Both the position numbers and the translations under genes were made by a program. 64,000 nt of DNA from a virus. The first letter of the stretch is position 1, and each line of letters begins with the position of its first letter. Under the pieces are notes generated by a model, which did no database searches, had not been told where the DNA came from, and saw only the letters and a list, made by a program, of their open reading frames with translations. The stretch lies in the IMG/VR virus record IMGVR_UViG_3300034110_001237, positions 64,001 through 128,000 of that record, one strand, 5' to 3'. This document shows, piece by piece, positions 10,223 to 49,240 of this stretch.

Positions 10223-11308
10223 ATGTCTACGTTTAAAGCAACCGTTCTTTCAGTCATTGTTGAGCCACACCCTAACGCTGATGCGATTGAACTGGCTCGC
10301 GTTGGTGATTTCTTTTCGATTATCCAAAAAGGATATTTGAAAACTGGCGATTTGGCTGTCTATATCCCAGAAGGTGCCCTTGTCCCTGAATTCATTCAGG
10401 AAGAAGTGGGGTGCCTCGGTAAATTGGCAGGTTCCAAGAAAAATCGTTTGAAACCGTCTATGCTTCGTGGCGTGCTTAGCCAAGGTCTTTGCTTTAAGGC
10501 CCGTGAAGGTTGGGAAATTGGTGATGATAAAGCCGAAGAATTGGGTATCGTGAAATATGAGGCTCCTATTCCAGCTTCTATGAATGGTGAAATTTCTAAC
10601 GTAGGCATTGAAAACACTTTCCACTTTGACATTGAAAACGTCAAACGCTACCCTGATGTGTTGGTTGAGGGTGAAGAAGTGTCGATGACTGAAAAACTGC
10701 ACGGTACTTTTACTATTGCAGGTAGTGTGTATGGTAAAGCTCCAATTCCACACACTGTTAATGGTCGTTCTTTTGTGAGTAGCAAAGGATTCTTTAACAA
10801 AGGTTTGGTGCTTCGTGATAACGAACAAAATGCTCATAACATTTACATTCGTGTAGCGAAGAAGTTTAATCTTTATGACATTACGGCTATCCTTTCAGAC
10901 CGTTACAAAACTAACGCTTACATTTCGGGTGAAACGTTTGGTGCTGTTCAAGATTTGACTTACGGTCTTGAAGCGGGTGTGTTCGATTTCCGTGTGTTCA
11001 ATGTGTTCCTTGGTAATCGTAGCGAAGCAAGTGGTGTGTTCCCAGTGAACGATGATGTATTAGAAGAAATTCTTGCTGAGTTCGACTTGAAGCGTGTTCC
11101 AGTGCTTTACAAAGGGCCATACAGTAAAGAAGTGATGTTGAAATATACGGATGGATTTGAAACCTATTCAGGCAAAGAAACACACATCCGTGAAGGTTTG
11201 GTTATTGAACCACTTGTTCAGCGTCGTGACCCAACCATTGGGCGTGTTGTCTTGAAAAGTGTTTCAACTGCTTACTTGTCGCGTAAAGGTGGCACTGAGC
11301 TTAACTAA
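10223..11308 (+). CDS. RNA ligase, DRB0094/Rnl5 family (N-terminal OB domain + adenylyltransferase)
   Basis: N-terminal PHPNADAIELARV..GDLAVYIP; motif I TEKLHGT; GETFG; FDFRVFNV; motif IV REGLVI; motif V VLKSVS..YL. Confidence 0.9.
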   Translation: MSTFKATVLSVIVEPHPNADAIELARVGDFFSIIQKGYLKTGDLAVYIPEGALVPEFIQEEVGCLGKLAGSKKNRLKPSMLRGVLSQGLCFKAREGWEIGDDKAEELGIVKYEAPIPASMNGEISNVGIENTFHFDIENVKRYPDVLVEGEEVSMTEKLHGTFTIAGSVYGKAPIPHTVNGRSFVSSKGFFNKGLVLRDNEQNAHNIYIRVAKKFNLYDITAILSDRYKTNAYISGETFGAVQDLTYGLEAGVFDFRVFNVFLGNRSEASGVFPVNDDVLEEILAEFDLKRVPVLYKGPYSKEVMLKYTDGFETYSGKETHIREGLVIEPLVQRRDPTIGRVVLKSVSTAYLSRKGGTELN

Positions 11309-23725: not shown

Positions 23726-23895
23726 AAATTAACCCTCAAATAATCGATTATTTTACTTTATGGATGATAAAAAGTCAATGTTTTATGTTATTTTCATTTT
23801 ATTTCTTTGTTTTTAACTTTTTCATGATTAAAACGTTGCTTTATAGGCTCTATTTTGGTACAATATCGGAAATGAAAACAACGGAGATACACCAC

Positions 23896-25050
23896 ATGTC
23901 AATTTTTCCAACTATTCGCCATATTGACGACATCTTGCCAGCTTTGGTTGGTAAAGATTACATCGGTATCAACAAGCAATCTAACGGTTCGACTGTTATT
24001 TGCTATAACATCAGCAATGCTGAAGGTTTTGCTACGTCTTTTGAAAAAGAGTGTCGTGGTATTACTTTCAACCGCGATGGTAAAATTGTCTCCCGTCCTT
24101 TGCATAAGTTCTTTAACTTGGCAGAGCGTGAAGAAGTCTTGCCACAAAACTTGAATTGGGATGATGTTGTTGCTGTCTTCGATAAAATGGATGGTTCTAT
24201 GATTACGGGTGGTGTATTCCACGGTGAAGTCTTCGTAAAATCTAAAAAATCCTTTGAATCGGATGTGGCTGTCTCTGCTTTGGCTTATGTGAAAGCAAAC
24301 CAGAAATATTACGATTTCATCAAGCATTGTGCTAATGTAGATTTGACACCAGTTTTTGAATATACGTCGCCAAATAACCGGATCGTATTGCGTTACGATG
24401 AAGAAAAAATGACTGTGTTGCATGTTCGTCATAACATCACTGGTTTATACCATACTCCAGATGAAGTGGCAGCATTGGCGAAGTCTTTTGACATTCCAGT
24501 GAACGCACCATTGTTTGGTAAAGGCTTTGATTTGAAAGCATTGTTGGAATCTTTGAATACTGTTGAAGGAATCGAAGGTTATGTCATTCAGTTTAAAAAC
24601 GGCGATATGGTGAAAGTCAAAACTCGCTGGTATGTAAACTTGCACCATGCTGTTACTTTCGTGCGTATCCGTGATATTGCTCGTTTGGTATTGTCGGAAA
24701 AAATTGACGACTACATTGCATTTGTTGCTTTGAATGCACCAGAAGCCGATTTGACTCAAATCCATCATATCAACGACACTATTAAAGGTGAAATTGAAGG
24801 AATCAAGAAAGAAGTTGATACAATTTTGGCTCAGCATCAAGGTGCAGATTTCAAAACGTTGGCAACTACTTACTTGGGGCATCCATACTTCTCTTTCATC
24901 ATGACCACTGCTCGTGGTAAAGAAGTGGATTATTTGGACTACTACGAACGTAACCGTTTGAAAGAAGTTTGGTCTTTGGAGCAAGTGGATTTGGGTGACT
25001 TCACTGGCACCGACGAATCAGACGAAGAAGTTCAAGTAGACGAAGAGTGA
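23896..25050 (+). CDS. RNA ligase, T4 Rnl1 (RnlA) family
   Basis: ECRGITF..DG.IVSRP.HKFFN; motif I DKMDGS; FEYTSP.NRIV..Y; motif IV EGYVI; motif V VKVKT.WY; RBS GGAG before ATG 23896. Confidence 0.9.
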   Translation: MSIFPTIRHIDDILPALVGKDYIGINKQSNGSTVICYNISNAEGFATSFEKECRGITFNRDGKIVSRPLHKFFNLAEREEVLPQNLNWDDVVAVFDKMDGSMITGGVFHGEVFVKSKKSFESDVAVSALAYVKANQKYYDFIKHCANVDLTPVFEYTSPNNRIVLRYDEEKMTVLHVRHNITGLYHTPDEVAALAKSFDIPVNAPLFGKGFDLKALLESLNTVEGIEGYVIQFKNGDMVKVKTRWYVNLHHAVTFVRIRDIARLVLSEKIDDYIAFVALNAPEADLTQIHHINDTIKGEIEGIKKEVDTILAQHQGADFKTLATTYLGHPYFSFIMTTARGKEVDYLDYYERNRLKEVWSLEQVDLGDFTGTDESDEEVQVDEE

Positions 25051-40457: not shown

Positions 40458-40486
40458 TTGACTTCTTAGTTTCTATTTGTTATTAT
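40458..40486 (+). promoter_or_regulatory. sigma70 promoter of tRNA-like RNA
   Basis: TTGACT-N17-TATTAT (with TG extension) 5 nt upstream of RNA. Confidence 0.7.
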
Positions 40487-40491
40487 TGAGC

Positions 40492-40588
40492 CACTAGATA
40501 GAGATGACGATGGAATCGCCTCACAGAAAGGTTAGATCATCTTTAGGTTCAGCGGCGATTGGTTGGGTTCGAGTCCCAGATCTAGTGT
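40492..40588 (+). ncRNA. tRNA-like RNA lacking D stem, with 33-nt anticodon-position loop
   Basis: CACTAGAT/ATCTAGTG acceptor-like stem, TTGGG-TTCGAGT-CCCAG T arm, AATCGCC/GGCGATT stem; own promoter and terminator. Confidence 0.7.
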
Positions 40589-40589
40589 G

Positions 40590-40621
40590 AGGACTTACAA
40601 TTATGTGAGTCCTTTTTTTTT
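40590..40621 (+). terminator. intrinsic terminator
   Basis: AGGACTTACA-atta-TGTGAGTCCT followed by T run. Confidence 0.8.
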
Positions 40622-49137: not shown

Positions 49138-49240
49138 GCGGATGTGTGAGCGTAATAGGAGAGTTGGCCGTCCGTCCTTGAATAAAGGTTGCTCTACTGT
49201 TGTATTGGTAACGTAGGTTCAAATCCTACCATCTGCACCA
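49138..49240 (+). ncRNA. tRNA-like RNA (Leu-like acceptor) with non-canonical D/anticodon region
   Basis: GCGGATG/CATCTGC-A-CCA, GTAGG-TTCAAAT-CCTAC; 103 nt; no canonical anticodon arm. Confidence 0.7.

Follow-up and report, generated by a model that had tools for sequence, protein, structure and literature searches.

The stretch of viral DNA analyzed here, positions 64,001 to 128,000 of the IMG/VR virus record IMGVR_UViG_3300034110_001237 (64,000 nucleotides [nt] in all, hereafter the window), carries at positions 40458 to 40621 a locus that raises a simple question: what is a small RNA with the ends of a transfer RNA (tRNA), its own promoter, and its own terminator doing in a phage genome? 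A first-pass annotation, made from the sequence alone, had proposed a stand-alone tRNA mimic. Our comparative analysis indicates that the locus is a functional small-RNA gene with its own early-type promoter, the local member of a family, here called X RNA, whose copies are found within or close to the tRNA clusters of huge phages that are unrelated to one another. To judge from its sequences, X RNA is a previously undescribed RNA family of huge phages, rare but deep. We hold it to be highly probable that the window encodes a real, conserved, stand-alone structured RNA of the architecture described below. The reading that we favor adds a function: the product of this X RNA gene would be an uncharged mimic or decoy acting on host translation, with SmpB as the best guess for its target. 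We give this combined statement a probability of about 0.4.

The gene consists of the following parts, given by their positions in the window.

40458..40486, plus strand: sigma-70-type promoter TTGACT-17-TATTAT with a TG extended -10; hexamers and spacing are kept in relatives, and the spacer sequence has diverged
40492..40499, plus strand: 5' strand of the acceptor stem, CACUAGAU (DNA CACTAGAT); pairs with 40580-40587
40500..40507, plus strand: 5' strand of the pseudoknot helix, AGAGAUGA (DNA AGAGATGA), at the site of a D stem or of the D-loop of transfer-messenger RNA (tmRNA); pairs with 40537-40544
40508..40513, plus strand: loop L1, CGAUGG; mostly 6 nt across the family, at most 5 nt in a few members, penultimate G invariant, UGACGN in GC-rich members
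40514..40520, plus strand: 5' strand of stem S2, AAUCGCC; 7 of 7 pairs identical in all 22 sequences
40521..40536, plus strand: loop L2, UCACAG-A-AAGG-UUAGA; UCACAG-N-AAG conserved across the family
40537..40544, plus strand: 3' strand of the pseudoknot helix, UCAUCUUU (DNA TCATCTTT); pairs with 40500-40507
40545..40553, plus strand: loop L3, AGGUUCAGC; GG-N3-AGC spacing conserved
40554..40560, plus strand: 3' strand of stem S2, GGCGAUU, invariant; followed by the 2-nt linker GG (GA in most members)
40563..40579, plus strand: T arm, UUGGG / UUCGAGU / CCCAG; 4 of 5 pairs covary
40580..40587, plus strand: 3' strand of the acceptor stem, AUCUAGUG (DNA ATCTAGTG); pairs with 40492-40499, and is followed by UGAGG, not by CCA
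40589..40620, plus strand: intrinsic terminator with an 11-base-pair (bp) stem, a 4-nt loop, and a T-run; stem kept, with changes, in close relatives

The first-pass annotation had described the promoter, the acceptor stem, the T arm, the 7-bp stem, the complementarity between D region and loop, the terminator, and the missing CCA, and all were found again in their places. Five bases separate the end of the promoter from the acceptor stem, and transcription is predicted to start at or beside the first acceptor base (40492/40493). X RNA, about 96 nt long, is overall the top half of a tRNA: an acceptor stem of 7 to 8 bp stacked on a canonical T arm, with neither a D stem nor an anticodon arm. 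The invariant 7-bp S2 leaves the core at the same point as helix 2 of tmRNA, and its 33-nt loop folds back on the 13- to 14-nt equivalent of the D-loop to form a covarying pseudoknot of 6 to 8 bp. Linkers measure 0 to 3 nt to the acceptor and 2 to 3 nt to the T arm, where a G-R linker precedes the T stem. The window RNA has a fold z-score of -3.3.

How widespread is this RNA? Neighboring proteins led us to four related contigs, in which a 63-nt core differs at two positions only. Close relatives show a compensatory change in the T stem (from UUGGG/CCCAG to CGGGG/CCCCG) and a rewritten promoter spacer between conserved hexamers. A search by the Rnl1 RNA ligase gave a 437-kb phage record, 98% complete, in which a covariance model finds X RNA at 82 bits. 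There three pairs of the acceptor, UAUUGGAU/GUCCGAUA, are fully compensated, the T stem reads AUGGG/CCCAU, and the same promoter lies at the same distance from the RNA. The motif AAUCGCCUCACAG-N-AAGG added three more viral contigs and the pattern AAUCGCCUCACAG-N15-40-AGCGGCGAUU added 21 metagenome contigs; the latter had 0 matches in 185,579 prokaryote species, each represented by a single genome. X RNA is thus carried by about 28 metagenomic or viral contigs, from which 22 distinct sequences align; two further candidates (L028 and L052) were dismissed as chance matches. Many copies sit within tRNA arrays of up to 21 genes, some a few bases from a true tRNA. The core motif had no match in the literature that we searched.

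The distribution of X RNA is patchy. The X model was run on 50 other phage records with an Rnl1 ligase, of which 17 have a completeness of 90% or more; it found no copy, and its two matches of about 18 bits in this set were rejected, as an odd 95-nt tRNA-Ile and as noise. The former (L144:1503-1597), which ARAGORN calls tRNA-Ile(UAU), has a long extra segment, belongs to the tRNA array of a 311-kb phage, and stands outside the X family. X RNA also occurs on two metagenome contigs of 1.5 to 1.9 Mb, L050 (Ga0308158_10000001, 1,859,102 bp) and L048 (Ga0247725_1000001, 1,539,155 bp). The L050 copy is identical to that of a 179-kb "provirus" relative, and the IMG/VR "provirus" records with X RNA may belong to host chromosomes or to replicons of much greater size.

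Is the pseudoknot real? The first-pass annotation had allowed for a pseudoknot or an alternative fold. We fitted the 22 distinct homologs to the pseudoknot fold (alignment A6) and counted the pairs changed on both sides. All 8 pairs of the acceptor stem have changed in this way (97% of cells paired), as have all 8 pairs of the pseudoknot (95%) and 4 of the 5 pairs of the T stem (95.5%); S2 is invariant, with 0 of 7 pairs changed and 100% of cells paired. The covariation score of 0.771 compares with 0.179 for shuffles, 0 of 500 of which reached 0.771, and with at most 0.133 for slid controls. Because the alignment had been fitted to the pseudoknot, we ran a second, alignment-free test, based on the longest helix between D region and loop, taken within the same sequence or across sequences. 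The helix within a sequence averaged 7.5 bp (minimum 6), against 4.6 bp between different RNAs. The register of the pseudoknot is nearly constant (L1 of about 6 nt, 3' strand beginning about 10 nt past UCACAG), and about 15 different sequences form it, e.g., AGAGAUGA/UCAUCUUU, GAGACAA/UUGUCUC, ACCUCAG/CUGGGGU, UCAUGCA/UGCAUGA, and CGACCGC/GCGGUUG. The rival for these bases, the inner hairpin of the minimum-free-energy (MFE) fold (40527-32/40539-44), is just 45% paired in the homologs, and distant members score 10 to 20 bits higher with a covariance model that includes the pseudoknot than with one that includes the MFE hairpin. The pseudoknot is validated by covariation and, as far as sequence comparison can tell, is real; the alternative fold was dropped.

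The invariance of S2 and L2 is in part a matter of construction, most homologs having been retrieved with that very motif. Sequences found by synteny or by the model retain the S2/L2 motif though their acceptor has changed at 5 of 8 pairs, and AAG and GG-N3-AGC lay outside the metagenome search pattern, yet are conserved. A relaxed motif search, with the outer four S2 pairs freed, returned nine chance, coding-looking matches only and no further true member.

Several other pairings were rejected. The homologs do not keep a local D stem (GAU/AUC), since its 5' side coincides with the variable strand of the pseudoknot; this bears out the first-pass view that the RNA has no D stem. Neither a CGAU/AUCG hairpin nor a CCU/AGG hairpin is kept. 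The segment GUUAGAU (40531-40537), a near-repeat of the 5' acceptor strand, could pair with 40580-86 as an alternative 5' acceptor arm; it is not conserved in the 437-kb relative and is probably fortuitous or the trace of a duplication. The 8-bp acceptor stem of the first-pass annotation is present, with a reservation about its eighth pair, which may be the -1:73 pair of a precursor: L047 has C.A in its place, and in GC-rich members a discriminator follows 7 bp.

Is this RNA a gene of its own, or the leader or the remnant of something else? Among relatives, the promoter hexamers and the RNA are kept while the promoter spacer and the flanks diverge. The 162-kb record to which the window belongs and the 437-kb, 98%-complete phage have promoter and RNA in common, and both flanking genes are unrelated; the terminator is not adjacent to X RNA in the latter. 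Since promoter and RNA are shared between unrelated flanking genes, they appear to form an autonomous module, neither leader nor remnant. The earlier proposal of a stand-alone expression unit that is not a decaying tRNA therefore fits what sequence conservation suggests.

Does the acceptor end have a role of its own? The family comes in two flavors that differ at this end. Seven distinct GC-rich members have an acceptor of the form GGGC.../...GUCC that includes G3:U70; position 73 is A in six and G in one (L042). A CCA is encoded in four of the seven, as an NCCA end (L035, L042, L045, and L049), and the -1:73 pair forms in some only. One GC-rich member starts GGGGCUGU and ends GCGGCUCC-ACCA, and L1 is UGACG in this group. 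In the AT-rich members, the window copy among them, the acceptor sequence is arbitrary and both G3:U70 and CCA are missing; with C-G/U-A at position 3 and G or U at position 73, the window copy lacks alanine identity. The tRNAs of the same contigs provide a useful comparison. On AT-rich carrier contigs, 70 of 75 tRNAs encode a CCA and none of the X RNAs does; on GC-rich carrier contigs, only 12 of 59 tRNAs encode it, yet X RNA often has it. Given these two patterns, the acceptor end looks functional and alanine-specific in the GC-rich branch and deliberately non-chargeable in the branch of the window.

This end also bears on the suggestion of the first-pass annotation that the RNA recalls a miniature tmRNA. 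The layout is apt, and GC-rich relatives add G3:U70, mostly A73, four encoded CCAs, and matches to the Rfam tmRNA model, which aligns both of their ends at 15 to 30 bits, with E values down to about 1e-8. These scores lie below the Rfam gathering threshold of the model (RF00023, 47 bits) and overlap the range of some ordinary phage tRNAs, so we take them as supportive, not decisive. The remainder of the suggestion did not hold. Across the homologs there is no conserved reading frame or stop codon in the loop, and no member has a conserved tag open reading frame (ORF); the candidate tag ORF of the window copy (GAA/GCA AGG UUA GAU CAU CUU UAG) was rejected as not conserved. The window copy lacks the alanine identity pair and, in the Rfam model check that had been proposed, has no match at E<=10 to tmRNA, tRNA, tRNA-Sec, or YrlA; its sole weak Rfam match at that cutoff is the streptococcal small RNA SpF41 (E 0.43), which stems from T arm and terminator. 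Membership in tmRNA proper fails on the tag, on alanine identity (window copy), and on model score.

Could X RNA simply be a tRNA after all: one that decodes, one whose precursor has an intron-like insert in the anticodon loop, or a pseudogene in decay? The canonical T arm and acceptor would suit such an origin, and CUCACAG can be read as a Val (CAC) anticodon loop. A Val anticodon conflicts with G3:U70, and removal of the insert, itself a strand of the covarying pseudoknot, would leave no D arm. ARAGORN and the Rfam tRNA (RF00005) and tRNA-Sec models reject X RNA, which has no conserved local D stem for a cloverleaf, and a near-invariant core with a conserved promoter excludes decay. We regard this explanation as very improbable and already largely refuted.

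If X RNA is not a tRNA, what might it act on? The best-sampled carriers, G001 (31% GC), G006 (48%), and G008 (61%), share 5 to 13 proteins pairwise by BLASTP, and an M23 peptidase is the only protein common to all three. With almost no proteins shared among them, a phage-encoded protein partner is unlikely; more plausibly, to go by this sequence comparison, the invariant core makes contact with a universal host component. The tRNA array that holds X RNA also includes a full tmRNA in G006 and in G008.

G006:C1:8650-9044: full tmRNA, within a tRNA array
G008:C1:195186-195591 (L053:1504-1909): full tmRNA, within a tRNA array

One of the two is standard, with the tag ANDSSYDQLAQAA and no encoded CCA; the other is permuted, with the tag ANDSQFKVAAYA. 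None of the three best-sampled carriers encodes SmpB, and no SmpB gene was found in the five carrier records searched, so that any action through SmpB would require the host protein. An above-threshold tmRNA occurs in one of the 50 non-carrier records. This co-occurrence hints at a link with trans-translation. As a side observation, short stretches of 52 to 75 nt in other huge phages score 34 to 36 bits on the tmRNA model (G026:C1:107466-107540, G043:C1:109779-109846, and G031:C1:259583-259634); these may represent tRNA-Ala genes or additional tag-less, tmRNA-like minis such as that of the mycobacteriophage DS6A.

We propose that the X family descends from, or converges on, the tag-less tRNA-like domain of tmRNA. 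In the lineage of the window, the RNA would remain uncharged and would serve, through its invariant core, as a mimic or decoy on a universally conserved component of host translation, of which SmpB and the trans-translation machinery are our best single guess. Compared with tmRNA's tRNA-like domain, X RNA has the acceptor and T arm, the stemless D-loop, the missing anticodon arm, and the exit of helix 2, with half of the D-equivalent pseudoknotted. Previous work offers a precedent: a molecule reduced to the tRNA-like domain is reported to inhibit tmRNA strongly, whether or not it can be charged, perhaps by titration of SmpB (PMC4131195, PMC11915505). As a specific mechanism, a decoy for SmpB and trans-translation stays tentative, on balance rather unlikely.

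Several observations weigh against this proposal and should be kept together. The invariance of S2 and L2 owes something to the way in which most homologs were retrieved, as noted above. The tmRNA scores of the GC-rich members are sub-threshold and within reach of ordinary phage tRNAs, those members may descend from tRNA-Ala, and the window copy matches none of the Rfam models named above. The AT-rich X RNAs lack the GAC motif of the D-equivalent. A CCA could be added to the window RNA by a host enzyme after transcription. The tmRNA co-occurrence, 2 of 3 carriers against 1 of 17 near-complete non-carriers, comes from few, related, non-independent records. The presence of a full tmRNA without SmpB in two carriers argues against simple, indiscriminate titration, since an SmpB sponge would hamper the tmRNA of the phage itself. 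Finally, SmpB binds the elbow of tmRNA, holds a single-stranded D-loop extended, and occupies the space of the D and anticodon stems, with helix 2 mimicking a long variable arm (PMC3968760); the segment of the same length in X RNA is half paired. The pseudoknot must either open for SmpB or replace it.

The second of these options leads to a different explanation, in which X RNA is a self-sufficient, tRNA-shaped ligand of the ribosome. Pseudoknot and invariant stem and loop would take up the room of the D and anticodon arms, filled by SmpB in tmRNA (PMC3968760), so that the RNA could enter or occupy a ribosomal tRNA site with no need of SmpB; it would carry alanine in GC-rich phages and stay uncharged in the lineage of the window. 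The paired D-equivalent and the short linkers to acceptor and T arm agree with this, as does the coexistence of X RNA with phage tmRNAs, which it does not replace. A core that stays invariant over phages of 31 to 61% GC, with almost no phage proteins in common, fits a universal target such as ribosomal RNA. The uncharged, CCA-less members speak against delivery by EF-Tu, and the geometry depends on linker lengths alone. We consider this explanation unlikely. Its boldest form, in which X RNA is an all-RNA counterpart of the SmpB-bound tRNA-like domain of tmRNA, docks alone in a ribosomal tRNA site, and reprograms rescue or occupancy during infection, seems to us quite doubtful. If true, the pseudoknotted core would replace SmpB, in an alanylated molecule in some phages and an uncharged one in the phage of the window.

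The genome around the locus brings in further considerations. The window comes from a 161.7-kb record (34% GC, about 50% complete) that contains small genes of unassigned function, three tRNAs, and two RNA ligases. In the window, ARAGORN calls tRNA-Leu(UAG) and tRNA-Cys only, and Rfam at gathering thresholds reports the same two. The two ligase genes lie at 23764-25050 and 10223-11308; the types present are a T4 Rnl1-type tRNA-repair ligase (PF09511, E 2e-31) and an RNA_ligase plus PHA02142 OB-fold type (PF09414). Such a pair suggests an investment in tRNA or RNA repair. A second tRNA-like RNA of 99 nt, at 49138-49236, has the acceptor GCGGAUG/CAUCUGC, G3:U70, A73, an encoded CCA, and a perfect T arm. 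Since ARAGORN, Rfam, and the X model are all silent on it, it would be a separate mimic, of alanine type, in this phage. Another tRNA-like unit, 65 nt long, lies about 15.4 kb upstream of the window start (G000:C1:48531-48595); it has the acceptor CUGCCAC/GUGGUGG, a T arm, and ACCA, and likewise escapes ARAGORN. The T arm of X RNA has a 15-nt core identical to the T arm of the phage's own tRNA-Leu, and a search for antisense targets within the phage genome gave chance-level 9- to 15-mers only. Searches by blastn with the locus, its 10-kb neighborhood, the core, and one GC-rich member found no cultured-phage match to the record, only T-arm-level or chance matches.

Could X RNA then protect or tune the tRNA set of the phage? 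It might be a decoy or sponge for a host enzyme or defense nuclease that recognizes the top half of a tRNA or an element like an anticodon loop, e.g., RNase P or Z, the CCA-adding enzyme, or an anticodon or acceptor nuclease. Its place within tRNA arrays, the two RNA ligases with the tRNA-repair type among them, and a genome seemingly rich in other tRNA-like RNAs are what this would lead one to expect, and the start of the loop, CUCACAG, resembles an anticodon loop (Y32, U33, NNN, A37). A core invariant over very different hosts fits a lineage-specific defense poorly, the 50 other Rnl1-bearing phages lack X RNA, and no nuclease target with the X sequence is known to us. We see little probability in this explanation.

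Ligand-binding RNAs, too, typically combine peripheral helices that vary with junction and loop nucleotides that do not. The tRNA half could be a scaffold for processing or stability, with ends that would permit excision from array transcripts, and the pseudoknotted core could bind a small ligand, or a protein that escaped detection, in the manner of an aptamer. Rfam gives no riboswitch or aptamer match, X RNA is not upstream of any conserved gene, and the G3:U70, the usual A73, and the CCA retained in GC-rich members indicate that the acceptor end is itself functional. This makes the scaffold explanation quite improbable.

The favored reading, an uncharged mimic or decoy on host translation, has consequences beyond this phage. 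X RNA is missed entirely by standard annotation (tRNAscan, ARAGORN, or Rfam), and the non-coding RNAs of huge phages are barely charted despite large translation toolkits. That carriers with almost no common proteins share a compact covarying fold with an invariant core suggests direct engagement of some host machine that is universal. Should its target be SmpB, tmRNA, or the ribosome, X RNA would be a portable agent, provided by nature, that inhibits or modulates ribosome rescue, and it would be an example of a tRNA or tmRNA scaffold rebuilt by means of a pseudoknot. Structural work gains a clean target, and phage annotation a new covariance model.

How does X RNA compare with known systems? 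With bacterial tRNA-Sec, the window copy shares the possibility of 8 + 5 stacked acceptor and T pairs; this identity was rejected, as there is no 6-bp D stem, UCA anticodon arm, variable arm, or RF01852 match, and the eighth pair is not universal. YrlA (RF02553) is, like X RNA, a tRNA mimic with a T-arm-like element. YrlA, whose gene is linked to rsr (Ro), builds its Ro-binding stem from the 5' and 3' ends and carries the tRNA-like module inside. The ends of X RNA form the acceptor, no YrlA match was found, and the record has no TROVE/Ro gene, so that the Y-RNA-type mimic of the first-pass annotation was abandoned. Tag-less tmRNAs are known from jakobid mitochondria and some plastids, including plastid forms of about 65 nt (PMC11915505). 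Like X RNA, they retain the tRNA-like part only, with no tag frame, and they are presumed still to act with SmpB (PMC11915505); they differ in that they are usually permuted and lack the pseudoknotted invariant core, and neither their sequence nor their model (RF02544) matches X RNA.

In tmRNA itself, the tRNA-like domain has the same order of parts: acceptor, 13- to 14-nt D-equivalent, helix, short linker, T arm, acceptor. GC-rich X RNAs share with it GGGC.../...GUCC-A-CCA, G3:U70, and UGACG and UUGAC beside the helix. At about 96 nt against 230 to 400 nt, X RNA has no mRNA-like domain, resume codon, tag, or pseudoknot ring, and we know of no tmRNA with a pseudoknot that involves the D-equivalent. 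The mycobacteriophage DS6A carries a tmRNA consisting of the tRNA-like domain only (PMC4131195, PMC11915505; Mao et al. 2009, cited therein), which we located at L062:1501-1583 (83 nt, 43 bits on the tmRNA model). X-model R2 has no match on DS6A at E<=10. The DS6A RNA differs in its helix, CGCCG/CGGCG, in the absence of the AAUCGCC/UCACAG motif, and in that no pseudoknot between D-loop and loop was found; the window copy, for its part, lacks G3:U70 and A73. Still, the two have much in common: both are phage-encoded RNAs of about 83 to 100 nt, without D stem, anticodon arm, or tag ORF, in which an acceptor and a T arm are joined to a short, helix-2-like stem closed by a loop.

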